A stretch of DNA of 64,000 bases, from the NCBI GenBank assembly GCA_963700275.1, contig CAVOWZ010000001.1, forward strand, positions 344,151 to 408,150. Direction: 5' to 3'. Below are positions 7,793-64,000 of this stretch, piece after piece; position 1 is the first letter of the stretch, and each line of letters opens with the position of its first letter. Source of the DNA: an uncultured Bacteroidales bacterium. Lineage in GTDB: Bacteria; Bacteroidota; Bacteroidia; Bacteroidales; VadinHA17. Under the pieces are notes generated by a model. It was not told where the DNA came from. It worked only from the letters and a program-made list of their open reading frames with translations, and did no database searches. Position numbers and translations under genes: made by a program.

Positions 7793-9027
7793 ATGATACT
7801 TTTATTCCTTACAAGCGGATTATTTCTGGGATGGTCATTGGGCGCCAATGATGCTTCAAATGCATTCGGATCAGCTGTCGGATCGAAGATGGTCTCGTTC
7901 CGTAAAGCAGCAATTATTGCATCAGTAGCAGTCATTCTCGGGGCAGTAATGCAGGGAGCCGGAACATCCCAGACACTGGGGAAACTCGGTTCGGTAAATG
8001 CCATCGGAGGATCATTTACTCTTGCACTGGCCGCAGGAGTCACTGTTTACCTGATGACAAAGCTATCTCTTCCGGTATCGACAACGCAGGCAATTGTAGG
8101 TGCCATAATCGGCTGGAACCTTTTCACGGGTAATAAAACCGATGCCGCCACTCTGTCAACAATTGTTGCCAGCTGGGTATCAGGTCCTGTACTGGGGGCC
8201 TTGTTTTCCATCCCTCTTTTCATGCTTATAATCTCCATAAAAAAGAGATCGGGGATTCACCTGATAAGGTTTGAATCTTATATCAGAACCGGACTTATTA
8301 TTACCGGGGCTTTCGCAGCTTACAGTTTAGGTGCAAATAATATTGCAAACGTAATGGGAGTATTTCTGCCTGCATTTAACCTTCAGGAGCTGAACCTGGG
8401 AATTATAACTTTGACTTCCTCCCAGCAGCTTTTCCTGCTTGGCGGATTAGCTATTGCGGCAGGAATAATCACTTATTCAAAAAGAGTTATGCAGACTATC
8501 GGGGCAAATATTGTACAACTCAGTCCCGAAGCAGCAATGGTTGTAGTGCTTGCCCATTCTCTTGTTCTGTTTTTGTTCTCATCTTCCTCCCTGTCTTCAT
8601 TTCTGAAAGGAGCAGGCCTTCCCTCAATACCACTTGTTCCCATATCAAGCTCACAGGTAATTATCGGTTGTGTTCTGGCATAGGCCTTTACAAGGGTATA
8701 AGGAACATCAATTTCAGCCTTCTTGGCCAGGTAGCCGCAGGATGGATAGCAACTCCTGTTATAACATGCATCCTTACATTTCTTTCCCTGTTTTTCTTTA
8801 AAAACATGTTCAATATTGATGTCGGACACAGGATAGCGGAGGGTACTTTAGCGCCTGAGTCCATACGGCCTGTTTCTGATCCCGTGATTTCAGAATTAAT
8901 GAGATACTTGCTTCTGGGAATTCTTGTTGCAGGATTTTTCGTGATCGCTTATCTTTATTTTCTTGATAGAAAAAAAAGGAAGGAGCTCTTACGTTCGGAA
9001 AAGAGGTTCTGGAAAAATATCAAATGA
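7793..9027 (+). pseudogene. Inorganic phosphate transporter (PiT family) interrupted by one frameshift near 8678
   Basis: ORFs 7793-8683 and 8668-9027 together read SSSQVIIGCVL|GIGLYKG...AGWIATPV, a PiT signature split across frames. One base seems to be missing in ctggca. The N-terminal GANDASNAF motif is present. Confidence 0.8.
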
Positions 9028-9229: not shown

Positions 9230-11798
9230 ATGGAACCCAAAAAAAATCAGGAGAATAAAATGAATCTTTCGCGGAGGACCTTTTTAGGACAGGCTGCTGC
9301 AGGAAGCGCTGTCGTAATGCTTGGTCCGGTTAATTCAGTATTCGGTAGTCAAATTCAGGATGCCACGAGCTGGCCGGCAGGAGCCTCGGATTTCCGTGTC
9401 CATATGATTGGACATGCACATATCGATCCCGTATGGCTCTGGCCGTGGCCGGAAGGTATGTCTGTTGCCTACAGCACTTTCAGATCAGCGCTGGACCGAA
9501 TGAATGAGACTCCGGATTTCACTTTTACCGCCAGTTCTGCACAGTTTTACCAGTGGATAGCTGATAATGATCCGCTGATGCTGAAAGAGATCAAAAAACG
9601 GGTGGATGAAGGGCGATGGAATGTTGTCGGAGGATGGTGGATCGAACCTGATGTAAATATTCCATCAGGTGAGGCTCTTGTAAGACAGGGTCTCTATGGT
9701 CAGCTTACTTTCCAGCGCCTGCTGGGCCACAGGGCAAAAGTGGCATGTAATCCGGATTCTTTCGGACACACGGGGACATTACCTCAGATTATCAGGGGAC
9801 AGGGCATGGAGAATTATATTTTCATGCGGCCGGGCATCCTGGAAAAAACACTTCCTGCCGATCTTTTCTGGTGGGAAGGTCCGGACGGATCACGTGTACT
9901 TACATACAGGATCCCGATAAGCTATAATGATACCGGATCTGTGAGGAAGCGGGTGAATGACACCCTTGCCCAGTTCAGGGATCAGCCGGTGAAGAAATTC
10001 ATGGCTTATTACGGTGCAGGTGATCATGGAGGAGGCGCAACAAAAGAAAATATCCGTTCCATAAATGAACTGAAAACCGAAAAAGGAGCTCCGCTGATAT
10101 TCTACAGTACAACCGACAGATATTTCAATGAAATAAGGGCGGATAAAAGTATTAATCTTCCGGTGGTCAGTGATGATCTCCAGCATCATGCAACAGGATG
10201 CTACACGGCAGAATCAGAGATAAAGAAAGGGTAACCGTCAGTCCGAAGCTGCCCTGGTAACCGCAGAGAAAATTTCAGCCATAGGTTCCATGGCATGGGG
10301 AGCAAAATATCCGATGAAGGAATTAACCTCCGCGTGGCAAAAAGTGCTTTTCCTCCAGTTCCACGACAGCCTTGCCGGAACATCAGTACCGGAACACAGC
10401 CAGCATGCCCGCGAAGGCTATGGCTTTGCACTCGAAACGGCACACCAGGCAGCATATTTTGCTGTTCAGAAGCTGGAAAGCATGGTGGCTTCCGAAGATC
10501 CCGAATCACAGTATCTGCTTGCATTTAATCCGAATGCATGGGAGGTTACAGGAAATATAGAATATGATTTTTCCTGGAATATCAAAAACACTTCAAAGGT
10601 GGAGGATGAATCAGGAAAATCCTTACTTCACCAATGGATTGCCGGATCAACCGAAACAGGCAACCGTACAAGGCTCGTTGCCAAAGTCAGTCTGCCGGCG
10701 CTGGGTTATCGTCAGATCAGGATATCAAAGGGAGAAACTGCATCAATTGCGGATGCGGTCATTGTTAAGGAAAAGCTGCTCGAAAATGATTTCCTGAGAG
10801 TGTCTTTTTCATTTTCAGGCGCATTATCAATATTTGATAAAAAAGCCGGCAGGGAAGTTTTTGCCGGAAAAGATACCGGTTGCAGGGCATTGATCATCAA
10901 TGATCCAAGTGACACATGGAGCCATAACATCAAAACTTTTTCGGAAGAGATAGGCGCCTTCGGAAATGCTACTTTCAAAATTCTGGAAAACGGACCATTG
11001 CGCGGAGCAATCCGGGTAATCACAACCTATGGCAATTCATCACTCACAACAGACTGGTTTCTTACCTCGGGTTCCGGAATGCTCGAAGCAAGAGTCTCCC
11101 TGAACTGGCATGAACGTCTTAAGATGCTTAAATTCTCATTCCCGGTAAATGTTGAATCGCCGGTTGCCACATACGAAACACCTTACGGAAACATAGAAAG
11201 GAAAACAAACGGCGACGAAGATCCCGGACAAAGATGGATTGATGTCAGCGGAAAAAACAATGGAAACACCTGCGGCTTCTGCCTCTTCAATGATGCAAAA
11301 TATGGTTACAGTGTCCATGGGAATGATCTCAGGCTTTCAGTTGCCCGGTCTGCAGTATTTGCACATCACGATCCCAAAGTGCTGGATATGAAGGCTGAGC
11401 ACATATGGATGGACCAGGGCATTCAAACATTCCGGATGGTTATTGCTCCTCACAAGGGTGACTGGAAGAATAACAGCATTGTAAGGACGGCTGAAGAACT
11501 GCATGCTCCCCCGGTGGCAATATACCAGGGTATTCATGGCGGAAAACTGCCAAAATCAAATTCATTCCTGTCAGCGGATCCGGAAAATGTAATGGTATCA
11601 TCCATAAAGCTTGCCGAAACCAATGATGATCTTGTAATTCGCTGTGTTGAAACAGAAGGCCTGGCCTCAGATGCAACGATCGATCTGAAAATTGCAGGAA
11701 AAAAATGGCAGGGAAAATTCAAGCCTTATGAAATAAAAACATTACGGCTGAACCGTAAATCGGGGCAGATCAGGGAAGTAAATTTGTTGGAAGAGTAA
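9230..11798 (+). pseudogene. GH38 alpha-mannosidase with a Tat-type signal, interrupted by one frameshift near 10229-10232
   Basis: N-terminal part has SRRTFLG and HAHIDPVWLW. The C-terminal ORF continues the GH38 central and C-terminal domains. Removing one g from aaagggtaac gives ...EIKKGNRQSEAALVTAEKISAIGSMAWGAKYP in one frame. Confidence 0.8.
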
Positions 11799-16535: not shown

Positions 16536-17056
16536 CTAGCCGTCAGACTAAGGAGTTTTGGGGATAAAAGTTTGAACAATTTCGGGTTCCTGAAACACAA
16601 ACCTGTTCTCGAACCTTAGAACAGTGAATCCCAATGCTTCAAGATATTTGTCCCTGGTAATATCTTTCAGGATCTGTATTGAATCCCCATGAGGATCTCC
16701 ATCAAGTTCAATTATCAGCTTTTCTGATGGACAATAGAAATCAACTATATAATTACCGATACTTTGCTGTCTTCTGAATTTTCTTCCTTCAAGATTCTTT
16801 GACTTTAGGTATTTCCATAAAACAGATTCAGCAGAAGTGGACTTATTTCTCAGATATGTTCTGAGCGGTTTGAGACTTTTTCGGTTGAAGAGGTGATTGT
16901 TATCCATTAAAATAAAAGTAATAAGAAAATAGATCAACCACCCCGGCCAGAAAATTTATATTTCTGCACGTTAGATGATTTTGTGGTCTGGCCACCCCTC
17001 CTTAAAAAAAGGAGGGGAAACTTTTGTGCCCAAAACTACGTAGGTTTACGGATATG
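16536..17056 (-). mobile_element. Gene-bearing (putatively autonomous) member of the MITE family, copy C
   Basis: Same TIRs and 5' hairpin module as copies A, B, E and F, but it encloses the DUF559 ORF. The ORF stop and last codons lie inside the TIR. Confidence 0.75.
16548..16907 (-). CDS. DUF559 endonuclease-domain protein (Vsr / PD-(D/E)xK-like fold)
   Basis: LRNKSTSAESVLWKYLK...YIVDFYCPSEKLIIELDGDPH...VLRF is the DUF559 signature. ATG at 16907 preferred over the TTG at 16937, which lies in the hairpin module. Confidence 0.85.
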   Translation of the reverse strand: MDNNHLFNRKSLKPLRTYLRNKSTSAESVLWKYLKSKNLEGRKFRRQQSIGNYIVDFYCPSEKLIIELDGDPHGDSIQILKDITRDKYLEALGFTVLRFENRFVFQEPEIVQTFIPKTP

Positions 17057-17164
17057 GTACTGGGAGGGGAAGGGGGTGGGTTTTTAGCGCAGGGCTGTGA
17101 GCGATGAGCAATAAGTAGTGAGATTATTTCAGCCCCAGCAGATCCATAATCCCGTTAATGAAGG

Positions 17165-17878
17165 TCAGCGGATGGCAGGGATTTCCCGGAACAAACAAAT
17201 CAATATGAGTTTATCGATAAAGTCCCTATTGATGGCCGGAGAATCTGCGAACATTCCTCCGCTGATGGCATCTGTTCCTGCAAGAATGATGATCTTAGGT
17301 TCGGGAACTGCATCCCAGGTTATCTGTAATGCTTCTGACATATTCTCAGTTACCGGACCGGTTATAACTATACCGTCAGCATGCCGGGGAGAAGCAACAA
17401 ATTCAATACCGTAACGTCCCATATCGAAATTCACATTTCCGGCAGCATTCAGTTCCATCTCGCAGGAATTGTCACCACCGGCCGAAACCTGTCTGAGTTT
17501 TAGTGATCGTTTAAATAACTTTCTGACCTCTTTCCTTATCAGTTCCTCATTCAGCCTCAGGGGATTTTCATCCCCGGGATGGATGATCAGTCCGTTTCGT
17601 GTATTTGCCGATATCCTGAAATCGTTAGTAAATCTGATCTTCCCCGGACATACAAAAGAACACTCCCGGCAAAAGACGCACCGTCCGAGATCAATTGACC
17701 CTGATTCCGGATCTATTGCTCCTGACGGACACAAAGATGAGACCTTCCTGATATCATCTTTACTGATATCGCGTTCAATTACCGGCTGTCCCCGGAATAA
17801 TGGTGATACAGGCTGGGTGCGAAGGTTTTTCACATATTGTACGCCATGACTTTTAATGACTTTTATTCCTCTAAGCAT
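17165..17878 (-). CDS. NuoB/HycG-like small subunit with an N-terminal ferredoxin-like segment, and atypical cluster ligands
   Basis: CVFCRECSFVCP (one 4Fe-4S motif), then the NuoB-like core ASPRHADGIVITGPVT. See the finding on Cys-to-Asp changes. Confidence 0.8.
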   Translation of the reverse strand: MLRGIKVIKSHGVQYVKNLRTQPVSPLFRGQPVIERDISKDDIRKVSSLCPSGAIDPESGSIDLGRCVFCRECSFVCPGKIRFTNDFRISANTRNGLIIHPGDENPLRLNEELIRKEVRKLFKRSLKLRQVSAGGDNSCEMELNAAGNVNFDMGRYGIEFVASPRHADGIVITGPVTENMSEALQITWDAVPEPKIIILAGTDAISGGMFADSPAINRDFIDKLILICLFREIPAIR

Positions 17879-17895
17879 CGGAAGGTTCTTAAAAA

Positions 17896-19410
17896 TTAAA
17901 GATCATTACCACAATATGACAGATTAAAGCTTTTATTGCACACCGGGAAATCGGATATTTCCTGGTTACGTACAGCAAGTGCCAGAGCCATCCAGTTATG
18001 AAGTGAAGGATCCTTTATCTTATATCCGACAATCTTCCCTATATTATCGGTCATTGCAATATGACAAATCTCACCTCTCCATCCCTCCACAATTGAAACG
18101 GCAAGTGATCCGGGCTTTAAATCATAATCATAGACTGGTTTAGCTGATACTTTGTTTTTCCTTTTCCTGATATCAATAAGATCCCTGATGATCCTTACAG
18201 ATTCGCGGAATTCAAGATTCCGTATCATGGCCCTCGCCAGCACATCACCCGATTCAAGAATGACAGGAGAAACTGGAAATTCCCTGAAATACTGAAATGG
18301 ATGTGAGTTCCTGATATCCCTTTTGAGACCGGAGGTACGTGCAGCCATTCCTACAGCGCCAATGGCCAATGCCTGTTCCTTTGTAACCTGGCCGATATCT
18401 TCAAATCGTGCAAGGACACTGGGTAATGAAAAGATCAGGGCGGTAATCTCACCAAACCGTTTTTCTGTCTCGCCGAGAACTTTCAGGATCGCATCTGAAA
18501 CTTCATCAGTCAACGGATAATTACTTCCTCCCGGTCTTATAAGTCCTTTCCCGAACCGGTTCCCGCACCACAGCTGGGTAGTATTGATTATCAAGGTCCT
18601 GAGAGCCTCGCAGACCACCTGGCCAAGCTGATAGGCAACATCACCACAGAGAGCGGCAGTATCGCCGATATGGATCGCTATTCTTTCCATCTCAAGAGCA
18701 ATGCACCGTTCGATCTGTAATGATTCGCCTGACTGAATGCCGGCCAGAGATTCAATAAGTTGCGAATGAGCCAGAGCATGTCCGGCAGAGGTATCTCCCG
18801 CAATGCTTTCAGAAAGAATACATCTCTGCAAAGCATTGTCCTTTTGAATAAAGAGTTTTTCAATTCCGCGGTGCTGATATCCCAGCTGAATTTCGAGGTG
18901 AAGCACCTTTTCTCCATTGCAGATAAACCTGAAATGCCCCGGTTCAATAACTCCTGCATGAACTGGCCCCACTCCCACCTCATGTAATTCTTCGCTCTCA
19001 ATAGAATAAAAAGGATAACCAGCCATAGCTGTGTTAATGGCATTATCATGGGGATATCGTACAGGCTTCAGCCAGGGATGGCCCATGAATTTTACTCCCG
19101 GGTTTTCATGGATCTCTCTTTCAAAAATATGAAGCTCTGAACAGTATGGCGTTAATGATGGCAGCGAAGGATTATTACTGTTTAGTCTATGAGAAAAAAT
19201 CTTAATATTCCTTTCAGAATCATTGGCGATGAAGCAATAAAATATCAGGTCTCCCTCTTTCCCGACTGTAAAATAATTCAGACAATGGTTCTCTTCCGCT
19301 TTCAGCAAATCTTTCACCGCTCCTGTAAAATCATCGTAGTTTAAAAGAGGTATCTGCTGAAGATCAACCGGGTATGCATTATTTTGTATTTCGGAATATT
19401 TCTGGGTCAT
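17896..19410 (-). CDS. Group-4 [NiFe]-hydrogenase large-subunit homologue (HycE/HyfG, NuoC+NuoD-like) lacking NiFe cysteines
   Basis: HEVGVGPVHAGVIEPGHFRF and LGYQHRGIEKL match the HycE family. There is no CxxC anywhere in the 504 aa. Confidence 0.85.
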   Translation of the reverse strand: MTQKYSEIQNNAYPVDLQQIPLLNYDDFTGAVKDLLKAEENHCLNYFTVGKEGDLIFYCFIANDSERNIKIFSHRLNSNNPSLPSLTPYCSELHIFEREIHENPGVKFMGHPWLKPVRYPHDNAINTAMAGYPFYSIESEELHEVGVGPVHAGVIEPGHFRFICNGEKVLHLEIQLGYQHRGIEKLFIQKDNALQRCILSESIAGDTSAGHALAHSQLIESLAGIQSGESLQIERCIALEMERIAIHIGDTAALCGDVAYQLGQVVCEALRTLIINTTQLWCGNRFGKGLIRPGGSNYPLTDEVSDAILKVLGETEKRFGEITALIFSLPSVLARFEDIGQVTKEQALAIGAVGMAARTSGLKRDIRNSHPFQYFREFPVSPVILESGDVLARAMIRNLEFRESVRIIRDLIDIRKRKNKVSAKPVYDYDLKPGSLAVSIVEGWRGEICHIAMTDNIGKIVGYKIKDPSLHNWMALALAVRNQEISDFPVCNKSFNLSYCGNDL

Positions 19411-19419
19411 TAATTTGTT

Positions 19420-20847
19420 CTATTTAGGCAGTATTGAAATGCTCTGGTTTATCAGTTCAGTAAGAAACTGAGGATGATAGAAGCAAAGGATGATCACAGC
19501 GCCAAGAAGTATAAACTGGCTTAATGCTTCGATTGATTTCACGCCGGAAGAAGAAAATGAGGCCGGAAGTGTACGGGGTTCTGAAAATATTATATGCATG
19601 ACCCTGGTACTCATTGCATAAACTACGAAACAAAGGAGAATTACAGAAATGATCAGAACAAGCCACTGATCATTAAAGACCATACCTTTAATGATCATTA
19701 CTTCCGAAATGAACAATCCGGAGGGAGGAATGGCAAGAACGCAGATCATGCCGGTCAGTAGTACCATTGCACCAGCAGGGTAGAGTTGCATGTACCTGCC
19801 AGTCTCATCAAGTTTGAAAGTATGAAGAACTCTTGACAGCTGTCCCATCTGAAAGAAGAGGCTTGATTTGGCAAATGAATGCAGTACAATAAGGAAAAAT
19901 GCTGCATACCAGCCGGCACCGCCGACTCCGATGGCAATAGCCACGAGTCCCATATTCTCGAGACTGGAATAAGCAAGCATCCTTTTAAGGTGTTTAGCCT
20001 TGAGCATATATCCTGCGGCCATTAACAGGGAGAGAACTCCTGAAAGGATAAGAACATTATTCATAAATGACAGAATGGATGAAGATGAAAATAATGTATA
20101 TACCCTGAAGATAGCCAGGAAACCGACATTCATTAATGTAGTGGAAATTAATGCACTGATAGGAGGCGGTGCAACAGAATGCGCATCAATTGTAACTGTA
20201 TGCATCGGAAATAGTCCCATCTTGGTGCTGAAACCTATTACCACAAATACAAAAGCTATTTTCAGATACATGGGGTTGGCTTCATTTATTATATTTTCAA
20301 GTGATGAAAAGGAAAGGCTGGCGGCGTCTTCCCGTCCATAAATGAATCCGAGGAAAAGTATTCCAAGATAAGCCAGAGAAATCCCTACAGAGCAGATGAA
20401 TACATATTTCCAGGTAGCCTCAAGCGCTGTTTCAGTCCTGTCGTGATAGATCAGAACAGCTACAGCCAGTGTTGTGGCTTCAACAAAGATCCACAATACA
20501 GTCATTCCGTTTGCCAGATAGGCTCCCGACATAAAAGTCATCAGGGCTATGAGCGCTGAATGATAGATGTTATATCGCTTAATTTCATCCTGAGCCGCAT
20601 AGATGAATCCATGATAGATAACAGGTATTACAAGTACCGAAAGGACAGCCAGTAACATTACACCCGTACTTGTAAATGTAAAATAAACCAGCTCTGTTGT
20701 ATTTATATTAATAAAGCTGTAAGCTGAAAGGGCGATATGCATGACAGCATATGAAATTACAAGAATCCGTGTTACCGCTTTGTTCCTGAACACAAAGATC
20801 AGTCCGCAGAATAAAAAGGATATTATAAAAAACAATAACAGTATCAT
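19420..20847 (-). CDS. Antiporter-like membrane subunit (HyfF / NuoN / MrpD family)
   Basis: 475-aa polytopic protein with the proton-pumping subunit pattern (...LAYSSLENMG...), within the hyf-like operon. Confidence 0.8.
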   Translation of the reverse strand: MILLLFFIISFLFCGLIFVFRNKAVTRILVISYAVMHIALSAYSFININTTELVYFTFTSTGVMLLAVLSVLVIPVIYHGFIYAAQDEIKRYNIYHSALIALMTFMSGAYLANGMTVLWIFVEATTLAVAVLIYHDRTETALEATWKYVFICSVGISLAYLGILFLGFIYGREDAASLSFSSLENIINEANPMYLKIAFVFVVIGFSTKMGLFPMHTVTIDAHSVAPPPISALISTTLMNVGFLAIFRVYTLFSSSSILSFMNNVLILSGVLSLLMAAGYMLKAKHLKRMLAYSSLENMGLVAIAIGVGGAGWYAAFFLIVLHSFAKSSLFFQMGQLSRVLHTFKLDETGRYMQLYPAGAMVLLTGMICVLAIPPSGLFISEVMIIKGMVFNDQWLVLIISVILLCFVVYAMSTRVMHIIFSEPRTLPASFSSSGVKSIEALSQFILLGAVIILCFYHPQFLTELINQSISILPK

Positions 20848-20850
20848 CAG

Positions 20851-21465
20851 TTAATCTTTTAACCTGGTTAGTTCATTTGTATTTGGTCTGAGCTTCAGAC
20901 CAAAAAAGCCCAGGATCAGTACTCCGACAAATATATCAAGCAAAATTCCTATGTTGATGAGCATGGGCATGCTGTTCCCCACCGCCAGAGAGAAAATGAA
21001 TACAGCATTTTCAATTATCAGAAAACCTATCAGGTGTGAAATTATAAGGCGATGCGTTACAATGAGCAACAGGCCGGTAAACAGTGTAAAGAGCGCTATT
21101 GTCATGAATATTGTATTGACGAACTGGTTGACAAGTGATCTGGAAAGTATCACACTGATCAGCAATGCTGCAATTGAAAAGAGGAGTAAATAAAAACCCG
21201 GCATTGCCTGACGGTGAACCTTGGTTACACCTGAACGGTCTATGATCCATTTAAGAAGATAAGGGATGAGTATAGTTTTGAAAAGCAAAGTCTCGGCAAC
21301 GATAAAGATAAGATTGGCTGTATTGACCTCTCGGAGCTCAAACAGTGCGATTCCACATAATAAAAGCCCCTGTAGTCCTATCAGTCGTATATAAATTATA
21401 AGCCTCTCTGCGGATGCAAAATATACAAGTGTAATTGCGAATAATACTATCAGGTAAGGTATCAT
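20851..21465 (-). CDS. HyfE-like small membrane subunit
   Basis: 204-aa hydrophobic protein. Its position between the HycD-like and HyfF-like genes matches hyf operon order. Confidence 0.65.
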   Translation of the reverse strand: MIPYLIVLFAITLVYFASAERLIIYIRLIGLQGLLLCGIALFELREVNTANLIFIVAETLLFKTILIPYLLKWIIDRSGVTKVHRQAMPGFYLLLFSIAALLISVILSRSLVNQFVNTIFMTIALFTLFTGLLLIVTHRLIISHLIGFLIIENAVFIFSLAVGNSMPMLINIGILLDIFVGVLILGFFGLKLRPNTNELTRLKD

Positions 21466-21469
21466 CCGT

Positions 21470-22381
21470 TCAGATCAGTTTATCGGTTGATATGAGGATT
21501 ATTACAAAAGCCAGCAGAGCAATAAAAGAAAGGGTAAGAATGAATTTGGGATTCTTATTCATCTTATTACGGGCCCTGAATGACTCCGTGAGACCAATTA
21601 TCAGTGCAAACAGAACCTGAATTGCAAGAAACAGTCCGATCTGGAGAAAAATATTCCAGCCCGCAGGGACTATTACATTAAATATCAGAGTGCCATATAT
21701 CGCAAATTTCAGATATGTTCCTATGTGAATAAGAGCTTTATCGAAACCGCTGTTATCAAGTATCATCACCTCGTGGATCATTGTAAGTTCAAGGTGAGTC
21801 TTAGGATCGTCGACCGGCAGTCTGCTGTTTTCAATAAGGGCTATCTGAAGCAGTAAATAGAATCCCAGTATCCCATAGATCAGCACATACTGGCTTCCGG
21901 AAATATAAAAATGACTGAATATTTCCGTGAAGGAAGTATACCCTGTCAGCATTGCGAAAGTGCCCATCAGTATGAAAAATGCCGGTTCAAGAAGCATTGA
22001 GAAGAATGCTTCGCGATTGGCGCCCATACCTTCAAAACTGCTTCCGGTATCAAGGGCTGCAATTATCATAAAGAATTTGCCCAAAGCAAGCATGTAAGAA
22101 AAAAATACAAAATCGCCATCGAAGGATATCAGGGAATTCTGATTGGCAAAGGGGATAAGCAGGGCGGCGCAGAAAATTGAAGAAAGTGTCACAACAGGTG
22201 CGATCTGAAAGATTATCCCGCTTGTGGTGCTGAAAACGCTACCCTTTCTCAGAAGGACAATAATATCGCGAACAGGCTGCAATATCCCGGGACCTTTCCT
22301 TCCTGAAGAAATACTCTTTGTTCTCAGAATAACTCCGGGAAACAGAAAGGAGACGAAAACTATAAGTAAAATCCCGGACAT
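21470..22381 (-). CDS. HycD/HyfC/NuoH-like membrane subunit
   Basis: 303-aa polytopic protein with a NuoH-type profile, in a tight operon. Confidence 0.75.
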   Translation of the reverse strand: MSGILLIVFVSFLFPGVILRTKSISSGRKGPGILQPVRDIIVLLRKGSVFSTTSGIIFQIAPVVTLSSIFCAALLIPFANQNSLISFDGDFVFFSYMLALGKFFMIIAALDTGSSFEGMGANREAFFSMLLEPAFFILMGTFAMLTGYTSFTEIFSHFYISGSQYVLIYGILGFYLLLQIALIENSRLPVDDPKTHLELTMIHEVMILDNSGFDKALIHIGTYLKFAIYGTLIFNVIVPAGWNIFLQIGLFLAIQVLFALIIGLTESFRARNKMNKNPKFILTLSFIALLAFVIILISTDKLI

Positions 22382-22383
22382 TT

Positions 22384-24375
22384 TCAGATAATCTTTAAAT
22401 AAGTCAGTAAAAAAACAACCAGCATAAAAATAAAGGCATACAGGATGTAGTGTTGTATAAGTCCGGTCTGCATCACAGCTATTTTTTTAAGAAGATCAGA
22501 AATCCATCCCATTGGTTTGTCAATAAGAAGCTTTTTAATAATATCATCGCTCTGTGATTCGAAGGTTCTCCCGGCAGGAAAAATCTCATCCTGTCCGATC
22601 TCCTTCATAATTTTCTTTGTCTGCAGAAGAGGCTTTGCAAGGTGATTGTAATTATATGCAAATGATGTTGAGGTATATTGTTGTCTGGCAGATGGGGCAG
22701 TATATCCGCATCCCCAAGTAGGTCCGGCAGTAACCTGTCTTAACTTCAGGTGATAGTGCCGGTAAATAAGCATTGCTGTGACGGAAAGCAAAAATATACC
22801 GCTCAGAATACTGATCATGGCAAGGTTATTAAGCGCCGGTCCGTATGTAATTGCCAGGCCGGGAAGGCTGAATGCTTCTGTAACTATTCCGGTTAAAGGC
22901 TTTACGAACCATACAGATGCAAGTCCGATCAGTAAAATAAACACAACAGGTATTATCTGGGGCAAAAGCATGATCCGTGAGACTTCGGAAGCTTTTGAAG
23001 CTTTTTCTGAACGGGCTTCACCCAGGAATGCGATCCCGAATGCTTTTGTAAAGCAAAATATTGCAAGTCCGCCTATAAGGGAAAGTCCGGCGATAACAAC
23101 TATCAGCATGATTGACTGGTAAAGATTTGAAGCTGACAGACTGTTAAACATCCCCATATAAATAAGGTATTCTGATATAAATCCGTTAAAAGGGGGTAAA
23201 CCGCAGATTGCAAGGGAGCCGATCAGGAACAATGCTGCGGTGTATGGCATCTTCTTCATCAGTCCGCCCAGGTTCTCTATATTTCTGGTATGTGCAGCCT
23301 GATAAACGGATCCGGCGCTGAAGAAAAGCAGCGATTTGAACAGAGAATGATTCAGCACATGTAATAATCCGCCGCTGAAACCGCAAAGAGCGAGAAGATT
23401 ATTGTTTGTTGCAATGCCGATTACACCTGTTCCGATACCTATTCCGATTATTCCGATGTTCTCAATGCTGTGATAAGCAAGAAGCCGTTTCAGGTCGTGC
23501 TGTACAATTGCCATCATCACCCCCAGAACACCTGAGATAAGGGAAATGACCAGGATTATCACTCCGATCAGAAGAAGATCGTGCTGTAAAGGTATAATGA
23601 CCCTGATTATTCCGTAAATACCCATTTTGATCATTACACCCGACATTACACCCGATACATGGGAAGGGGCTGCAGGATGAGCCTCAGGAAGCCATGTATG
23701 CAAAGGAATAAAACCAGCTTTAATTGCAAATCCGATGAAGAAAAGCATGAAAAGAAGGATGTTTGAATTACCGGAAAAATAAAGTTCCAGAGCATCAAAA
23801 CTCATTTTGCCGGTTGCCCTTTCAACCAGTAAGAAGGCAATTAACAGGAAAAACATACCGGCGTGCATCTGGATCAGATAGCTGATACCAGTCTTCATGA
23901 TTGACCGTTTTTCCGCTTCAAAAATCACAAGAAAAAAGGAAGACAGCGCCATTATTTCCCATGCTATCAGAAAATACAGACCACTGCGTAACATAACTAC
24001 CATAAGCATTGATAAACATAGCCACAGGTAGGAGAAATAATGTATCGAGAAGCGCAGATTTTTACTGCTTTGTTCATAGGGTGCAAGGTATCCCCTGGCA
24101 TAAAGAAATCCGGTAAAAACTGTTATATTTATAACAATAATAAAAAACGCTGAAAGCCTGTCGATAATAAATATTAAACTCTCACCGGGAAAATCGAAGG
24201 GAGCATTTATTTTTATCAGTCCGTCACTTCCGGAAAATATCTGAAAACTCCAGAATGTTGTCAGTAAAACAATACTTAAGAGCAGAAAAAGAGTATAGTA
24301 GTATTTTAAGGATCGCGGGATTATAAAAATGGCAAACGACAGGAAAATGATTAGCAGAAACAAAATGGCACTCAT
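22384..24375 (-). CDS. HyfB/HycC/NuoL-like antiporter subunit
   Basis: WEIMALSSFFLV, LAYHSIENIG and a C-terminal GPTWGCGY region as in HycC/HyfB. Start moved to MSAILFLL (ATG at 24375) to avoid overlap with the divergent gene. Confidence 0.8.
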   Translation of the reverse strand: MSAILFLLIIFLSFAIFIIPRSLKYYYTLFLLLSIVLLTTFWSFQIFSGSDGLIKINAPFDFPGESLIFIIDRLSAFFIIVINITVFTGFLYARGYLAPYEQSSKNLRFSIHYFSYLWLCLSMLMVVMLRSGLYFLIAWEIMALSSFFLVIFEAEKRSIMKTGISYLIQMHAGMFFLLIAFLLVERATGKMSFDALELYFSGNSNILLFMLFFIGFAIKAGFIPLHTWLPEAHPAAPSHVSGVMSGVMIKMGIYGIIRVIIPLQHDLLLIGVIILVISLISGVLGVMMAIVQHDLKRLLAYHSIENIGIIGIGIGTGVIGIATNNNLLALCGFSGGLLHVLNHSLFKSLLFFSAGSVYQAAHTRNIENLGGLMKKMPYTAALFLIGSLAICGLPPFNGFISEYLIYMGMFNSLSASNLYQSIMLIVVIAGLSLIGGLAIFCFTKAFGIAFLGEARSEKASKASEVSRIMLLPQIIPVVFILLIGLASVWFVKPLTGIVTEAFSLPGLAITYGPALNNLAMISILSGIFLLSVTAMLIYRHYHLKLRQVTAGPTWGCGYTAPSARQQYTSTSFAYNYNHLAKPLLQTKKIMKEIGQDEIFPAGRTFESQSDDIIKKLLIDKPMGWISDLLKKIAVMQTGLIQHYILYAFIFMLVVFLLTYLKII

Positions 24376-24430
24376 CGGTATATTTAAATGATTGCGATTG
24401 GTGGCGCAAAAGTAAAAAAAAATCAAATAA

Positions 24431-26275
24431 ATGCTCAATAAGCGGGAAATAAAGATCGACAGCCTCAATGAAAGTGTGTGGGGAGACCGGTATTCAGATA
24501 ATAAACCACTTATAAAGAAAGCCTTACGTTTACTGAAAGATGCGGGTAAGATAAACTATTCAAGGGGAATTGCTTATGCAAATCTGAATATTGCAGCACT
24601 GAATTTTCTGAATTCAAGGAATGATGCTGCACTCAAATCTCTGTCAGATTCATTTCAATGGTTCAGGAACAAAAAGAAGGAAAAAGGATATGTTCGCTAC
24701 CTCCTTTTAAAGGGAAATATCCTTGAAAGCTTCGGTCATTATGATAAGACTTTAAAGTTATGGCTTGAAGCATATAATATCTCCCGCGAAACAGAAGACA
24801 GGGAATCTGAGGCAGAAGCATGTAATCAGCTTGGCCTGATATGGCTGAGGCTGGGTAATTATAAAAGATCACTGGAATTTTTTAACAAGGGGCTTGAAAT
24901 AAGGGAGATCCTTCATGATGAAAATGCCCTTGCCTCTTCCTGTAACAGGATCGGTATGGTTCTGAGAGAAATGAAAAAATATAATGAGTCGATCGATTAT
25001 TACTTCAGGAGCCTAGAAATAAGAAAAAGGAATAATCAGACCTCGGCAATTCAGTGGACTCTTCTGGGCATTGCAAGCACATATGAAAGAATGAAGAAAT
25101 TCCCGGAATCCCTTGGCTATTATGAACAGGGAGCCAGGGATGGCGACAGGCGATGCATGCTTCAGTGCATAATGGGTGCAGGTCGTGTGCAAAGCCGTCT
25201 GGGAAATGCTGATGATGCGGAACAGAAACTTAAGGAAGCTCTCAGGATTGCAGGGGAGCTGAAATCACTTGCGCTTATGGCAGAGGCTCATCTTGCTTTA
25301 GCGAATCACTATGAACTGAATAAGCAACCTCTGAAAGCATTGAGAAGCTTCAGACACTATTTGAAATCCAGGGAAGCGTTTCAAAGTAAAGTAATGCAGA
25401 ACCGGCTCAGCAGTATTGAAGTAGCACACGCAATTGAAAAATCGGAACAGGAAAGAGAGATTTACAGGCTAAAGCATGTTGAACTGAAAACCGCTTATGA
25501 CATCATTGATGAAAAAAATAAGGATATAACTGCCAATATCAGCTATGCAAGCCGCATCCAGATGGCAGTTCTTCCGGATCCCGGCGAAATACCCGTTATG
25601 AAGAAAAATTGCTTTATCCTTTATATCCCGAAAGATGTGATAGGAGGTGATTTTTACTGGTTTTCAGGGATAGACGACAAACATGTGATCGTTGTTGCCG
25701 ATTGTACTGGTCATGGAGTGCCAGGCGCACTGATGAGCATTCTCGGGATTTCCTTTCTTGAAGAAATAATAAACAACAGAAGGATCACCGAACCCGATCT
25801 GATACTTAATGAACTAAGCCTGAAGGTGATATCAGCCCTGAAACAAAAAGGTGAGAGAAATGAAACAAAAGACGGTATGGATATCTCTGTCTGCGTAATA
25901 GACCGGGTTAAGAGTTCACTTCAGTTTTCAGGAGCTCATAATAATCTTTACCTGATAAGCAACAAAGAGCTGAAAGAATACAGTGCCGACCGGTTATCGG
26001 TAGGGTATTCTGATGAACCCGGAGCCACTTTCTCGAGTCAGACAATCGGCATCAGCCGCGGCGATATTATTTATATGTCTACAGATGGCTATACCGATCA
26101 GTTTGGAGGTAAAGAGCATAAACGATATAAGTCGCAGGCTTTCAAATCGCTGCTGCTGAAAATTCATGACAGGCCGCTGCCGGAGCAGAAGAAAAGGCTG
26201 GAGAAGGAGTTTAACCGCTGGAAAGGAAAGAATATTCAGACTGACGATGTCCTTGTATTAGGAATGATCCTGTAA
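24431..26275 (+). CDS. TPR-repeat protein with a C-terminal SpoIIE/PP2C-type serine phosphatase domain
   Basis: Multiple TPR-like repeats, then SRIQMAVLP, GGDFYWF, VADCTGHGVPGALMS and DGYTDQFGG. Confidence 0.8.
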   Translation: MLNKREIKIDSLNESVWGDRYSDNKPLIKKALRLLKDAGKINYSRGIAYANLNIAALNFLNSRNDAALKSLSDSFQWFRNKKKEKGYVRYLLLKGNILESFGHYDKTLKLWLEAYNISRETEDRESEAEACNQLGLIWLRLGNYKRSLEFFNKGLEIREILHDENALASSCNRIGMVLREMKKYNESIDYYFRSLEIRKRNNQTSAIQWTLLGIASTYERMKKFPESLGYYEQGARDGDRRCMLQCIMGAGRVQSRLGNADDAEQKLKEALRIAGELKSLALMAEAHLALANHYELNKQPLKALRSFRHYLKSREAFQSKVMQNRLSSIEVAHAIEKSEQEREIYRLKHVELKTAYDIIDEKNKDITANISYASRIQMAVLPDPGEIPVMKKNCFILYIPKDVIGGDFYWFSGIDDKHVIVVADCTGHGVPGALMSILGISFLEEIINNRRITEPDLILNELSLKVISALKQKGERNETKDGMDISVCVIDRVKSSLQFSGAHNNLYLISNKELKEYSADRLSVGYSDEPGATFSSQTIGISRGDIIYMSTDGYTDQFGGKEHKRYKSQAFKSLLLKIHDRPLPEQKKRLEKEFNRWKGKNIQTDDVLVLGMIL

Positions 26276-27361: not shown

Positions 27362-27715
27362 TCATTCCTGTGGTTTAACATAATACTTTATAGAAAACTT
27401 TTCTGATTTTTTATTACCACGCACATCAATGTACTCAACGATACCGCTATATGACTTCTCTCCAGACCTTTTACTTGCTGCTCTGAGTATTGCACATTTT
27501 TTTATCGTATCAATTGGAAGCCAAGATGTATCTGACCCCCTAATTATTTTAAATGCGGGTAAAAAGCCCTTATGGTAGGGCACATATAATTCCGCTATAA
27601 AATCAGTGCCATACTTAATGGTATCACCGTTTGTTTTTATTTCTATTTCAGTTGCTTGCTGTTTACCACAAGAAATAATTAATAAAATAATCAACCAAAA
27701 GCCTGCTTTTTTCAT
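27362..27715 (-). CDS. Lipoprotein, putative immunity protein for the orphan RHS toxin
   Basis: Signal and lipobox LLIISC. Its start overlaps the upstream toxin stop (ATGA), the usual toxin-immunity coupling. Confidence 0.55.
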   Translation of the reverse strand: MKKAGFWLIILLIISCGKQQATEIEIKTNGDTIKYGTDFIAELYVPYHKGFLPAFKIIRGSDTSWLPIDTIKKCAILRAASKRSGEKSYSGIVEYIDVRGNKKSEKFSIKYYVKPQE

Positions 27716-29100
27716 TTTGTCTTTTTTACGTATTTCTTTGAAACAGGTCTACCCATATTTGTAAATTTATGTACTTTCCAGTCTTGAACTGTATCCCCGT
27801 CTACATCATCAAAATAATATGTTTTTTGAACAACTGAAGAATCCGATTCTTTCCCTTCAGATTTATAATCATACTCATTCTTTTCCGATTCTTTAGTATA
27901 CTTTTTCACAAGAGGATTGTTTTGAATGAGTTCTTGATTATTCCCAGCTTTTTCCTTAATAATATCTTTATCCTCTGTTCCCTCGTAACTTTCATTTGAT
28001 CGGACATAATTATGTAATGCTGGATCGGTCAGATGAGCGCTACTTGCTTTTGCGATATCTTCAAGAATCTGCTGGTCAACATTTCTTATCATCCAATTTT
28101 CGAAATTTGTGGCATTTCTTACTTTACGTTCATAAGTATTACCTAATAAAAAATAATCAATTCTATTACCCAAAATCCATAGCCAACTATGAGATGATTG
28201 ATTTGGGGGATTTCTCTCTGCAACAACTACTACTTCTGGTAGTTTAATTGTGTCTATTAATCCAAATAGATCGATGAAGCGGATAGGGTTGTTCTTCACA
28301 TAGTTGTAAGGAGAAAGGTTTAGGCGGTATTCTGCCAATGGATCAGGCATATGCCACCTTCCAATTTGTGGATCGTACATCCTTGCGCCGTAATCGTAAA
28401 GGTCAAGATTCACGCCGCCAAGAAGGTTATTCTGAAATTCCTTACCGTTGTGAAGATATCTGTTGTCACTTGTTGCCGTCGTCTGAGGCTTATGAAGCAT
28501 ACCGAAAGGATAATAATCATCCTGCTGCACAATAACTCCTGTTGTTGAAGGCACATTAAATGACACTCTTGTACTGCCAAGGTGATCCTTCATGAAATAC
28601 TCATACGTATATGTTCCTGCTGAATTTGTTGCCCTCTCCTCCTGTGTAAGGATGTATTTCACCGCTATCCCGTTTGCTGTGCCGTCTAATGTGTAAACAT
28701 AGTTCCCAAAGTACAGAAGTGTTGTCCCTGTTGAAAGCCTCTGCTTCAGCTTTTCTCCTACCGAGGTATAAACATATTCTATCTTGTTTGCCGGGGTAAT
28801 AGTGTCGCTGATCCTTGCAGGAAGGTTAAGATAATTATACACGGTCTTCATCCTCTTGTTCCTGTTGAGCCACATGTTACCATTCTTATCGTAATAATAT
28901 TCCTTGTTAGTGTAACCGTTTGTAGCATCATAAAAATCACTCCTCCCTGCAATATCCGGTACTGAGTCAGCTATGGATCTAACCTGGTTACCCATACCAG
29001 TATACTTAAATGTAAGGCTGTCAAGCCTTCCAAACGATCCGGTGGCAATCTGACCTGACCTCAGGAGTTTGAGTATATTCCCGTTTTTATCATATGTCAT
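27712..29100 (-). CDS. Orphan RHS/YD-repeat C-terminal cassette (5'-truncated core plus a distinct C-terminal toxin domain)
   Basis: YD repeats nearly identical to the large RHS ORF, core-end motif NNPIRFIDLFGL, then about 183 aa of unrelated C-terminal sequence. Confidence 0.8.
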   Translation of the reverse strand: MTYDKNGNILKLLRSGQIATGSFGRLDSLTFKYTGMGNQVRSIADSVPDIAGRSDFYDATNGYTNKEYYYDKNGNMWLNRNKRMKTVYNYLNLPARISDTITPANKIEYVYTSVGEKLKQRLSTGTTLLYFGNYVYTLDGTANGIAVKYILTQEERATNSAGTYTYEYFMKDHLGSTRVSFNVPSTTGVIVQQDDYYPFGMLHKPQTTATSDNRYLHNGKEFQNNLLGGVNLDLYDYGARMYDPQIGRWHMPDPLAEYRLNLSPYNYVKNNPIRFIDLFGLIDTIKLPEVVVVAERNPPNQSSHSWLWILGNRIDYFLLGNTYERKVRNATNFENWMIRNVDQQILEDIAKASSAHLTDPALHNYVRSNESYEGTEDKDIIKEKAGNNQELIQNNPLVKKYTKESEKNEYDYKSEGKESDSSVVQKTYYFDDVDGDTVQDWKVHKFTNMGRPVSKKYVKKTK

Positions 29101-29345
29101 GATCTCACGATACCTGTTGACATTGGTAGTATACGAGATACCCTCCCCATATCTGGAAGTTGTCAGCCTGTTTAACTGGTCATAAATAAAACCGTATCCT
29201 TTCTGTGCAGACCCTGAACTACCGTTTTTCCACTTTATACCGCTAATGAAGCTCTCTTACTTTTGTAACAGCAGGTTTGTTCCTGAGTCTACCGAAAGCG
29301 CTGTTATTCGGGAAATCGGTATCGATAGTATATGTATAGTTCGCC
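29101..29345 (-). pseudogene. Out-of-frame upstream remnant of the orphan RHS core, with an internal deletion scar
   Basis: 29101-29245 aligns to about 31275-31425, and 29250-29345 aligns to about 31950-32050 of the large RHS ORF. About 0.5 kb is missing between them. Confidence 0.7.
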
Positions 29346-29378
29346 GGTTTTTTTATTTTATATTCATTTAATATGTAT

Positions 29379-29711
29379 TTACTTTTTATTACCGATTCCC
29401 CTTTCAACTTCTTCCCATCTTTTTGTATCTGAGTAATATGTTATTGATTCTCCTAACGATGTTCCAAACCAAATTTTGAAATTAATACTATCGTGTTTTA
29501 AGTAGCAAATTTTCTCATATAAAGCAGTATCTATTTTAAGTTCGACCATATTATTTGGTAACCTCCCGTGCTCCATTTTAAATTGCTCAACCAGTCCAAC
29601 TATTTCATCCCCTTTTTTAATCATTCTCTTTTCATACCTATTACAAGAGACTAATAGGACAATAAGAATGACTATAATATTTATTCTTTTTAGTGAGAGT
29701 ATATGTTTCAT
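29379..29711 (-). CDS. Lipoprotein, putative immunity protein for the RHS C-terminal toxin
   Basis: MKHILSLKRINIIVILIVLLVSC lipobox. Located 35 bp downstream of the RHS stop. Confidence 0.55.
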   Translation of the reverse strand: MKHILSLKRINIIVILIVLLVSCNRYEKRMIKKGDEIVGLVEQFKMEHGRLPNNMVELKIDTALYEKICYLKHDSINFKIWFGTSLGESITYYSDTKRWEEVERGIGNKK

Positions 29712-29745
29712 CTGGATCATAGTTTGATAATATAAACCTCCACAA

Positions 29746-63303: not shown

Positions 63304-64000
63304 AGGCATTTAAATTGATCTTCTTTACTATCATATTCAAAACGATCTGAAAGAAAGGTTTTCTTATTGTGACCGTGAGTTTTTTCGATGTCAAATGATG
63401 TTATATTTTACATAGTTACCAAGCTTCTGGTCTGTTATATAACTTATAGTTCTCCTCACTGCCATATCCTGCATCTGCTATGATATTTGCCGGCAGCGCT
63501 TTTAGCTGTGTTTTTACCTTATCAAAGAACGGGATTAATACAGATGTATCCGCAGCTTTCTGATATATACCGTAGCTCAATATAAACTGATCCTCAGTTG
63601 CGATCTGAACATTATATGCAGGCTTTAACTGACCCATTCCAAGATGATCTTCTTTCATACGAAAGAATGTGGCATCTATGTCGGTTTTTGAACAGCTGTT
63701 GCGCTGCTGTAACATATCTTTCTGCTGCTCATACTTTTTCAACTTTGGCACGTACTCATTTTTAAGCTTTTTGACCTCAGAGGTTACTCGTTTTGATTTT
63801 GTCCCATTTGATAGTTTCTGGTTGATATCATCTACCAGCTTCTCAACCTTCTCTGCTGTTATATGGCCCTCTAACTCTTCCAGGTTATGTATACCGTATT
63901 CAGCATCTTCCTCTTTCTGAAGTTGTTCAATGTGAGATAATAATTTTTTTACTCTTTCTTTCGTCTTAGATTCATGCCTTTCTACATTCTTCCTCCATAT
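63304..64000 (-). pseudogene. IS1182-family transposase fragment (runs off the window, frameshifted and 3'-truncated)
   Basis: SKTDIDATFFRMKEDHLGMGQLKPAYNVQIATE...ADAGYGSEENY. The frame is open to position 64000. Downstream pieces NYVKYN and FDIEKTHGHNKKTFLSDRFEYDSKEDQFKC lie in other frames and stop at the MITE junction. Confidence 0.75.

Follow-up and report, generated by a model that had tools for sequence, protein, structure and literature searches.

What does a membrane complex that is built like an energy-converting hydrogenase do once its catalytic subunit has lost the residues that hold the metal? The question is raised by a 64,000-nucleotide stretch of DNA from an uncultured Bacteroidales bacterium (contig CAVOWZ010000001.1; hereafter "the window"), in which six closely packed genes occupy positions 17124-24375 on the minus strand. 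Very probably their products form an Ehr complex (energy-converting-hydrogenase-related; genes ehrABCDLS), a six-subunit descendant of the group-4f-type membrane-bound [NiFe] hydrogenases. The Bacteroidales Ehr complex is not a complex I, and because it is unable to bind NiFe, it would neither make nor oxidize H2. We put at roughly 45% the probability of a scenario whereby the complex would translocate ions in step with protonation of, or binding within, the old NiFe pocket, with its remaining iron-sulfur cluster serving as sensor, gate or structural element. An ehr operon as such is no surprise to the specialist, and the class has already been named; what is new here is a large Bacteroidales clade, an EhrS with a single cluster, aspartates specific to Ehr, a series of graded cofactor loss and a frameshift.

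Which subunits are present? Open reading frames (ORFs) were identified with Pfam and NCBIfam profiles, and the nearest structures were found with phmmer against all chains in the PDB. The operon comprises the following genes:

22384-24375, minus strand: ehrA, 663 aa, an antiporter-type subunit resembling HyfB, HycC and NuoL (PF00361, 3e-55).
21470-22381, minus strand: ehrB, 303 aa, a HycD/NuoH-like subunit (PF00146, 6.6e-28; HycD, 7z0s_D, 2.6e-26).
20851-21465, minus strand: ehrC, 204 aa, a HyfE-like (NuoK-related) small membrane subunit (weak match to NF008556).
19420-20847, minus strand: ehrD, 475 aa, a HyfF/NuoN-like antiporter-type subunit (PF00361, 3.2e-42; top NCBIfam model HyfF, under its cutoff).
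17896-19410, minus strand: ehrL, 504 aa, a fusion of a NuoC-like part (aa 1-125) with a NuoD/HycE-like part (aa 130-504) (PF00329 and PF00346, the latter at 2.6e-35).
17124-17878, minus strand: ehrS, a half-ferredoxin domain joined to a NuoB/HycG/MbhJ-like domain (PF00037 and PF01058; MbhJ 3.1e-19, HycG 1.1e-17).

The gaps between the six ORFs measure 2, 4, 3, 9 and 17 nt, and the ATG of ehrA at 24375 agrees with the start in relatives. A preliminary description of this DNA had recognized a hyf-like order of HyfB, HycD, HyfE, HyfF, large subunit and small subunit, and the profile calls match it. For the membrane subunits, the top NCBIfam models are HyfB, HyfE and HyfF, and the nearest PDB chains are HycC and HycD: ehrA reaches 546 bits with NF005086 (hydrogenase 4 subunit B; cutoff 667) and its product is closest to HycC (7z0s_C, 8e-65), ehrC matches NF008556 (hydrogenase 4 membrane subunit) at 4.6e-10, under cutoff, and the EhrC homologs of two distant loci (L083 and L085, see below) match PF00420 weakly. 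Because all equivalog scores lie under their cutoffs, the subunits are relatives of the Hyf, Hyc and Nuo families and not members of them.

How complete is the loss of the active site? EhrL has HEVGVGPVHAGVIEPGHFRF at residue 143 and LGYQHRGIEKL at residue 176, and phmmer ranks HycE first (7z0s_E, 5e-34), followed by MbhL (3.6e-29), Nqo4 (1e-23) and MBS-L (1.6e-16). The AlphaFold2 model, built from a 45-sequence alignment, has a predicted template-modeling (TM) score of 0.81, and Foldseek again places HycE (7z0s_E) first, at a TM-score of 0.74 and ahead of fused NuoCD chains. Despite this HycE identity, EhrL contains 12 cysteines and not a single CxxC motif. In the phmmer alignment, HycE 'lsdrvCgiCgfaH' is paired with 'lsesiaGdtsagH' and HycE 'slDPCYSC' with 'fNLSYCG', so that the four [NiFe] cysteine positions of HycE correspond to A204, T207, S498 and G501 of EhrL:

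18766-18813, minus strand: L1 remnant SESIAGDTSAGHALAH, aa 200-215, with A204 and T207 in place of the N-terminal Ni/Fe cysteines and D206 between them.
17899-17925, minus strand: L2 remnant NLSYCGNDL followed by the stop codon, aa 496-504, with S498 and G501 in place of the C-terminal cysteines.

EhrL terminates three residues past the last ligand position, at the place where hydrogenase precursors are cleaved, and lacks a C-terminal extension. The same state is found throughout the family. When each species was represented by one genome, at least 522 species genomes proved to carry the operon, and 80 loci were retained; the alignments of EhrL and EhrS comprise 81 orthologs. None of these 81 Bacteroidales orthologs places a cysteine at one of the ligand positions. 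The L1 remnant follows the consensus E[SN]IAGD[TS] (A204 in 75/81, G205 in 81/81, D206 in 80/81, T or S at 207 in 81/81), the L2 remnant EISDFPVCNKSFNLSYCGxDL is invariant, and 143 of the 504 positions, including the entire L2 remnant, are conserved in at least 98% of orthologs. Since the identical state recurs in 81 of 81 orthologs, the ligand loss is not a sequencing artifact, and the earlier claim of a HycE-like large subunit devoid of CxxC motifs and of L1 and L2 ligands is borne out. Two further positions bear on the pocket. Ile155 and Gly205 align with His38 and Tyr87 of Nqo4, the quinone-binding positions, and D257 aligns with MbhL Asp121 and with Nqo4 Asp139.

Has the electron path to this pocket survived? 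Two sites in EhrS are informative:

17660-17731, minus strand: retained [4Fe-4S] motif, C50-P plus C67xxC70xxC73.
17462-17473, minus strand: D136-N-S-C139, at the site of the first cysteine pair of the proximal (N2-type) cluster.

C50, C67, C70 and C73 are each present in 81 of 81 orthologs, whereas the orphan C77 is a leucine in most relatives. Compared with MbhN and NuoI, EhrS has lost the first CxxCxxC and kept the Cys-Pro of motif 1 together with the second CxxCxxC; from this remaining ligand set, the ferredoxin domain is expected to hold exactly one cluster, and EhrS does not qualify as a HycF/HyfH-type electron-transfer module with 2x[4Fe-4S]. At the proximal cluster, MbhJ 'GSCNGCDIE' is paired with EhrS 'GGDNSCEME'. 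D136 is found in 81/81 orthologs, C139 in 76/81, D203 (17270-17272) in 80/81 and the Asn of PGNP in 79/81. As judged from this alignment, the proximal [4Fe-4S] ligands are lost, with one of four cysteines left. Missing ligands had been described correctly for the large subunit, but the loss in EhrS had escaped notice.

Is there an order to these losses? With HMMER, 580 of 1.84 billion cluster representatives matched below 1e-30; among the best 150, 110 were near full length and usable (33-54% identity). No fewer than 104 of the 110 are ligand-less and share the same L1 and L2 remnants. The other six have all four cysteines (AERICG[VA]C...SH and NKSFELCYSCxDR), their named members belong to Planctomycetota, and they form one clade in a neighbor-joining tree (midpoint-rooted, no outgroup, top 150 matches only). 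Of the ligand-less representatives, 88-92% have an aspartate at each of the positions D206, D257 and D467 (92% at D206), and the six Cys-bearing ones have V or A, G and S, respectively, at these positions. The positions that are at least 85% conserved in ligand-less sequences but different in Cys-bearing ones are D206, D257, D467, P468, S498, G501 and L504. The gain of the three aspartates therefore goes along with the loss of the thiolate ligands. Gene content and cofactor ligands at six distant loci compare with the window as follows:

L088 (anammox-type, true 4f-like): all four NiFe cysteines; 2+1 clusters.
L086: no NiFe cysteines; all three clusters.
L082 (Acidimicrobiales-type, small subunit first): no NiFe cysteines; a plain 4-Cys NuoB-like subunit with no ferredoxin domain.
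Window, L083 and L085: no NiFe cysteines; medial cluster only.
L084: all four NiFe cysteines; a D/A/D/D small subunit.

Five of these six loci again have the full six-gene set, in the same order in four of them and with the small subunit first in L082, the arrangement of M. tuberculosis Rv0082-87; L084 ends at a contig edge. The membrane genes are the same wherever present, being complete in the window, L082, L085, L086 and L088 and partial on the short contigs of L083 and L084. The former proximal-ligand positions of EhrS carry invariant Asp/(Cys)/Asp/Asn and not random residues, a pattern to be compared with that in L083, L084 and L085. In L084, a cluster-less small subunit of this kind coexists with a large subunit that has all its NiFe cysteines, a combination difficult to square with normal electron delivery. 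That the Ehr clades keep different clusters (proximal in L082, all three in L086, medial in the window) speaks against a single electron route to the pocket shared by all. This comparison suggests that the common core of the Ehr class would be a coupling and ion-translocation module and not one redox reaction.

EhrL carries four further cysteines that are invariant in the 81 orthologs, C164, C282, C491 and C500 (18919-18921, 18565-18567, 17938-17940 and 17911-17913, minus strand). We considered an obligate four-Cys site and rejected it: all four are present in 28 of the 110 representatives, none in 29 and a mixture in 53 (phi 0.3-0.6, a correlation that is confounded by phylogeny). Other Ehr clades retain neither C491 nor C500 as a conserved residue. 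The tetrad could be a clade-specific metal site or could just reflect shared ancestry; as a variant of the carboxylate-site reading discussed below, which we consider quite unlikely, the four cysteines may form a new metal site that replaces NiFe.

The membrane arm, by comparison, is conserved in its charged residues. E140, K250, E305, K347 and E402 of EhrA, its canonical channel residues, are 100% conserved in 64 orthologs, the charged loop between transmembrane helices (TM) 5 and 6 of EhrB, PVDDPKTHLELTMIHE (about 21737-21832), is invariant in 73, and E43, E58 and E152 of EhrC as well as E123, K327 and E382 of EhrD are invariant. In the peripheral arm, nearly all residues of EhrL from E141 to E184 are invariant in the 81 orthologs; they make up the beta1-beta2 region, which in homologous complexes touches the NuoH-like subunit. 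A peculiarity is N240 of EhrD (20128-20130), which is 100% conserved where antiporter-like subunits usually have the TM7 lysine (K250 in EhrA); given N240, the EhrD channel may be incomplete or may work otherwise.

How widespread is the complex, and is it maintained? EhrL has thousands of close homologs; 8000 were scored, the best 120 being 67-100% identical. Those that are named come from metagenome-assembled genomes of Bacteroidales or Bacteroidota and go by 'NADH-quinone oxidoreductase subunit C' or 'Ni,Fe-hydrogenase III large subunit'. The 80 retained loci all belong to uncultured Bacteroidales or 'Rikenellaceae', which were sampled in soils, fens, digesters, biofilms and the sediments of lakes, and the gene order ABCDEF is intact in 68 of them, the others being broken by contig ends. 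Pairwise comparison of the window with its three nearest relatives gave dN/dS values of 0.015-0.17 for all six genes (0.015-0.098 for ehrB), a sign of strong purifying selection, which implies that the ehr genes are functional and not relics. When the flanking ORFs of the 80 loci were clustered within 10 kb on either side, no conserved redox partner emerged, and no formate dehydrogenase (FDH), NuoEF, hyp or cytochrome genes were conserved among them. A conserved partner gene beside ehr was accordingly rejected; the flanks display housekeeping synteny only (ggt, DNA-alkylation repair, PitA/PhoU, MltG), plus a Gfo/Idh/MocA oxidoreductase.

How might such a complex work? We envision that the membrane arm, with its two antiporter-like subunits, its HyfE/NuoK-like and its NuoH-like subunit, is an intact device for the translocation of H+ or Na+, and that the peripheral arm would still be mechanically coupled to it, with the charged TM5-6 loop of EhrB and the invariant beta1-beta2 block of EhrL as the links. 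The ancestral electron wire would be broken: a true 4f enzyme has three [4Fe-4S] clusters, and of these only the middle one appears to be left. Meanwhile, the old NiFe pocket would have gained the carboxylates D206, D257 and D467 and the hydroxyls T207 and S498; the location of carboxylates at or beside former ligand positions suggests a proton- or hard-cation-binding site. Ion movement would then be coupled to protonation, or to the binding of a cation or ligand, in this acidic pocket, rather than to electron transfer through the arm. Because both neighboring clusters are gone, the lone EhrS cluster is unlikely to feed electrons to the pocket, and its role might instead be that of a gate, of a one-electron sensor or of a structural element. 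Gene content, ligand loss, conservation and purifying selection are direct observations; the cofactor content we infer from cysteine patterns, and the coupling and the non-redox reading are inferred as well.

Several points weigh against this scenario. The perfect conservation of the four EhrS cluster cysteines suits a working redox center at least equally well. Mrp antiporters move ions without a peripheral arm, so that the retention of about 750 residues of EhrL and EhrS would be puzzling if they did no chemistry. The pocket itself is modeled with low confidence, the predicted local distance difference test (pLDDT) score being below 50 at residues 115-180 and 480-504 of EhrL, and the model of an intact EhrS homolog (mean pLDDT 57) is confident only in the ferredoxin-like domain. 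Moreover, the retained cluster is presumably the medial, N6b-like one, an assignment that draws on the NuoI N6a/N6b literature. Finally, all subunits of the G. sulfurreducens Ehr complex were seen by proteomics and were more abundant on formate (PMC7894505), a hint of a redox role.

A more specific version of the ion-translocation scenario, which we consider quite unlikely in this particular form, holds that in this Bacteroidales clade both the electron wire and the NiFe pocket were rebuilt as a carboxylate-lined proton or cation site, comprising D136 and D203 of EhrS together with D206, D257, D467 and E156 of EhrL. If this were true, the complex would be an energy-converting machine without redox chemistry through its arm, with the [4Fe-4S] cluster as a redox switch. 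It might then be a peripheral-arm-gated H+ or Na+ translocator for pH or ion homeostasis, or it might use the ion gradient to drive non-redox chemistry at the former active site.

Alternatively, Ehr might still pump ions at the expense of a redox reaction. Electrons from reduced ferredoxin, from flavodoxin or from a separately encoded FDH would pass through the EhrS cluster to an acceptor at the EhrL/EhrS/EhrB interface and thereby drive the export of H+ or Na+, in analogy to the membrane-bound hydrogenase MBH, to MBS/Mbx or to formate hydrogenlyase (FHL), with other terminal chemistry. We regard this as possible, if rather improbable. The invariance of the four cluster cysteines and of the coupling loops and channel residues speaks for it, L086 keeps a three-cluster chain in the absence of NiFe that resembles an MBS-type path, and the formate response in Geobacter (PMC7894505) and the FDH-Ehr partnership proposed for Margulisbacteria point in the same direction. 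A potential source of reduced ferredoxin exists in the window, 31 kb from the ehr operon:

55535-57724, minus strand: two genes for an IorA/IorB-type 2-oxoacid:ferredoxin oxidoreductase (POR_N plus TPP_enzyme_C; POR).

Against a redox pump, a single cysteine is left among the four proximal ligands, so that by homology the remaining cluster would be two electron-transfer hops away from the pocket, and isoleucine and glycine occupy the positions of the NuoD quinone His and Tyr. Neither FDH, NuoEF nor any other donor or acceptor is conserved within 10 kb of the 80 loci or found among window ORFs of at least 100 aa, and ehr expression in Nitrospira did not respond to H2 in the Nitrospirales 2025 study. 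One specific candidate, a sulfane reductase of the MBS/Mbx type, was ruled out on its one-cluster cysteine pattern, its six subunits and the MBS-L match of 1.6e-16.

Might the window copy simply be dead? The preliminary description had the six-gene unit right but let the small subunit end at 17165, where the gene is frameshifted in the assembly:

17207-17213, minus strand (about 17209): 1-nt deletion that truncates ehrS, GATAAAC-TCATATT.

Nucleotide alignment with three related loci (L002, L003, L022) shows one base to be absent from the window gene, and tblastn of EhrS changes frame between 17213 and 17207. Uncorrected, ehrS encodes 237 aa with a frame-0 end of ...FIDKLILICLFREIPAIR and a stop at 17165, while the shifted frame reads ...HIDLFVPGNPCHPLTFINGIMDLLGLK to the stop at 17124, which is the conserved C-terminus of relatives, and gives a repaired product of 251 aa; the nearest relatives (92-93% identity) have 251-254 aa. 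An exact look-up of the repaired 251-aa sequence found no match; where the base is missing, the true residue is probably His (FIDKHHIDL, the sequence of the relative P0433) and not the Thr given by the repair. Conceivably, the frameshift is real and the operon is an inactivated relic in the course of being lost, as has been asserted for the Ehr of Geobacter KN400, and a 2026 paper indeed terms Ehr 'nonfunctional'. With the missing base, EhrS loses its final 28 conserved residues, and the truncated 237-aa form occurs on one 472,549-bp contig only (P0318). We nevertheless judge a relic very unlikely: the other five genes are intact and under the selection described above, and the family is kept in more than 500 species. 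Because the shifted frame is open and its last 25 residues are identical to the intact C-terminus of P0432 and P0433, the lesion must be either very recent or an error. Three further genes in the 64 kb are broken as well, as is typical of assembly indels: PitA (7793-9027) changes frame at 8677 by tblastn, and, as inferred from domain content and frame, a GH38 mannosidase (9230-11798) is split at 10234-10290 and a SusC-like receptor (48328-51349) at 49634-49704. The pattern points to uncorrected indel errors in the source assembly and not to pseudogenes. For this reason we read the ehrS lesion as probably an assembly indel, a very recent real mutation being less probable.

The two remaining alternatives have next to no probability. 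A genuine [NiFe] hydrogenase of the Hyf, Hyc or 4f type, with its cysteine ligands displaced or hidden by sequence errors as the preliminary description had allowed for, could invoke the HycE similarity, the hyf-like operon and the invariant C491 and C500 of the L2 region, of which C500 lies one residue off a ligand position, but it is excluded at the level of sequence: L1 has no cysteine, at most two lie near L2, the L1 and L2 cysteine pairs and the four-cysteine proximal cluster are lacking, the same ligand-less motifs recur in 81 orthologs from independent assemblies, C491 and C500 are not kept in other Ehr clades, and, as described before, a Pfam scan of the remaining ORFs in the window that encode 100 aa or more detects no hyp maturation, HycI-type endopeptidase or formate dehydrogenase family (hyp genes are not found within 10 kb of the true 4f locus L088 either). 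Likewise, the view that the genes encode NuoCD, NuoB, NuoH and NuoLMN of an ordinary respiratory complex I, for which one might cite the Pfam matches (Complex1_30kDa/49kDa, Oxidored_q6, NADHdh, Proton_antipo_M) and the NCBI label of relatives, founders on gene content and motifs, as there are six genes, conserved as such a unit between unrelated housekeeping genes, where complex I has between eleven and fourteen, the vicinity is devoid of NuoA, J, I and E-G, and there are NCBIfam scores for NuoD, NuoB and NuoH far under cutoff (NuoD 160 versus 360), FHL and MBH subunits as the top sequence and structure matches, and neither the N2 ligands nor the quinone His/Tyr of NuoD.

What surrounds the operon, and how might it be expressed? 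The following features lie next to it or elsewhere in the window:

24407-24414, minus strand: TACTTTTG, 32 nt upstream of the ehrA ATG, fitting TAnnTTTG.
24431-26275, plus strand: gene for a TPR-repeat protein with a C-terminal SpoIIE/PP2C phosphatase domain, divergent from ehrA and 55 bp from its start.
16548-16937, minus strand: DUF559 (endonuclease-like) gene between ehrS and the gamma-glutamyltranspeptidase gene.
27362-32631, minus strand: ORFs of 961, 462, 129 and 117 aa with no Pfam matches.
53328-54404, plus strand: IS110-family transposase.
63416-64000, minus strand: partial DDE transposase at the window edge.

TAnnTTTG is the consensus of the Bacteroidetes -7 promoter box. Since the motif is not enriched in the window (44 found versus 61 expected), the copy upstream of ehrA is a lead only. 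A scan for sigma-70 promoters and terminators gave scores no better than shuffled sequences, and Rfam had no matches in the window. The TPR/SpoIIE-PP2C neighbor is not conserved among the loci of relatives, whereas a Gfo/Idh/MocA oxidoreductase with a twin-arginine translocation signal, which lies upstream on the same strand in 39 of the 80 loci, is absent from the window. Downstream, ggt is usually the first gene after ehrS in relatives. Farther away, the 462-aa product resembles by eye the C-terminal region of an RHS/YD-repeat toxin and is followed by small lipoprotein-like ORFs, so that 27362-32631 is possibly a polymorphic toxin/immunity locus. Apart from the two transposase genes, the region is syntenic.

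How do these findings relate to what has been described before? The name 'Ehr' was coined for GSU0739-45 of G. sulfurreducens (EhrA-1, EhrC, EhrL, EhrS and others) and is credited to Coppi 2004/2005 (PMC7894505), and HydDB was trained to leave out Ehr as hydrogenase homologs without H2 metabolism (PMC5037454). Papers on Margulisbacteria, comammox Nitrospira, Nitrospirales (2025), M. tuberculosis, ammonia-oxidizing archaea and bacteria of the candidate phyla radiation (CPR) report complexes without CxxC that are close to 4f, and from 2019 to 2025 they state that the function is unknown, just as the preliminary description had it. Its assignment to the Ehr class agrees with a large subunit nearest to group 4 (HycE before MbhL before NuoD), with the loss of all four ligands and with the Geobacter gene order. 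The class was indeed proposed bioinformatically as an intermediate between group-4 hydrogenases and complex I, with the correction that the naming reportedly goes back to Coppi (2005), ahead of Marreiros et al. (2013).

Ehr complexes are thus found in Geobacter, M. tuberculosis, Nitrospira, ammonia-oxidizing archaea, CPR bacteria and more than 500 Bacteroidales species. A corollary is that the automated labels of EhrL relatives inflate the counts of both hydrogenases and complex I in metagenomic surveys. A case in point may be a 'group 4f' cluster of Methylocystis that, according to a 2026 preprint, is induced 16-20-fold at pH 5 and has the motif AARVS (bioRxiv 10.1101/2025.08.29.672306). This motif places Ser at the first ligand position and matches the ligand-less P0267 (AARVSGDS...NLSYSGHDL), and the presumed 'group 4f [NiFe]-hydrogenase' may be an Ehr complex misclassified as a hydrogenase. 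Its acid induction would then be an expression lead in favor of the ion-translocation scenario. As its organism is uncultured, the window itself adds no experimental handle, but the comparative series supplies concrete residues and variants to test.

The closest counterparts are the other Ehr complexes. Those of Geobacter (GSU0739-45), M. tuberculosis (Rv0082-87), Nitrospira and Margulisbacteria have the same six subunit types and no CxxC ligands, and the gene order of the window is that of the Geobacter subunit names ehrA-D, L and S. The window differs from these in belonging to a large Bacteroidales clade, in the loss of the EhrS proximal ligands and in its one-cluster half-ferredoxin domain. 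Among the best 150 representatives, the nearest Cys-bearing relatives are those of group 4f (Ehf), exemplified by L088, which shares with the window the order ABCDEF, the L2 context DFPLxNKSFxLxY...D and the fused NuoC-NuoD and ferredoxin-NuoB subunits. Unlike the window, with its one cluster and no NiFe cysteines, L088 has four NiFe cysteines, two ferredoxin-type clusters and a four-cysteine proximal cluster.

Among solved structures, E. coli FHL (7z0s) is the top match for EhrL (HycE), EhrA (HycC), EhrB (HycD) and EhrS (HycG), but the window lacks HycB, a separate HycF, an FdhF partner, the HycI-cleaved extension and nearby hyp or hycI genes. Like the window, hydrogenase-4 (Hyf) has a HyfE/HyfF-like pair, which is extra relative to FHL. 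MBH and MBS/Mbx of P. furiosus (6cfw, 6u8y) also mount a peripheral NuoB/D-like module on a NuoH-like and antiporter-like arm. They have 13-14 subunits, an Mrp-type Na+ module and three [4Fe-4S] clusters, compared with six subunits and one cluster in the window, and their sequence matches are weaker than that of HycE. With MBS there is a precedent for the descent of a NiFe-less enzyme with other chemistry from a hydrogenase. Mrp antiporters, a comparison of working principle only, resemble the window in their two MrpA/D-like subunits and a NuoK-like one, and differ from it in having MrpE, F and G and no NuoB, C, D or H homologs; in our preferred scenario, both would move ions independently of redox chemistry. 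Complex I has homologous Q-module and P-module subunits, whereas the window is without an N-module, NuoA/J/I and the N2 cluster and has Ile155 and Gly205 at Nqo4 His38 and Tyr87. Ehr complexes sit, as their class was conceived, between group-4 hydrogenases and complex I, and the loci compared here form a series that leads from three clusters plus NiFe to three clusters and on to one proximal or one medial cluster, while the membrane arm stays unchanged.

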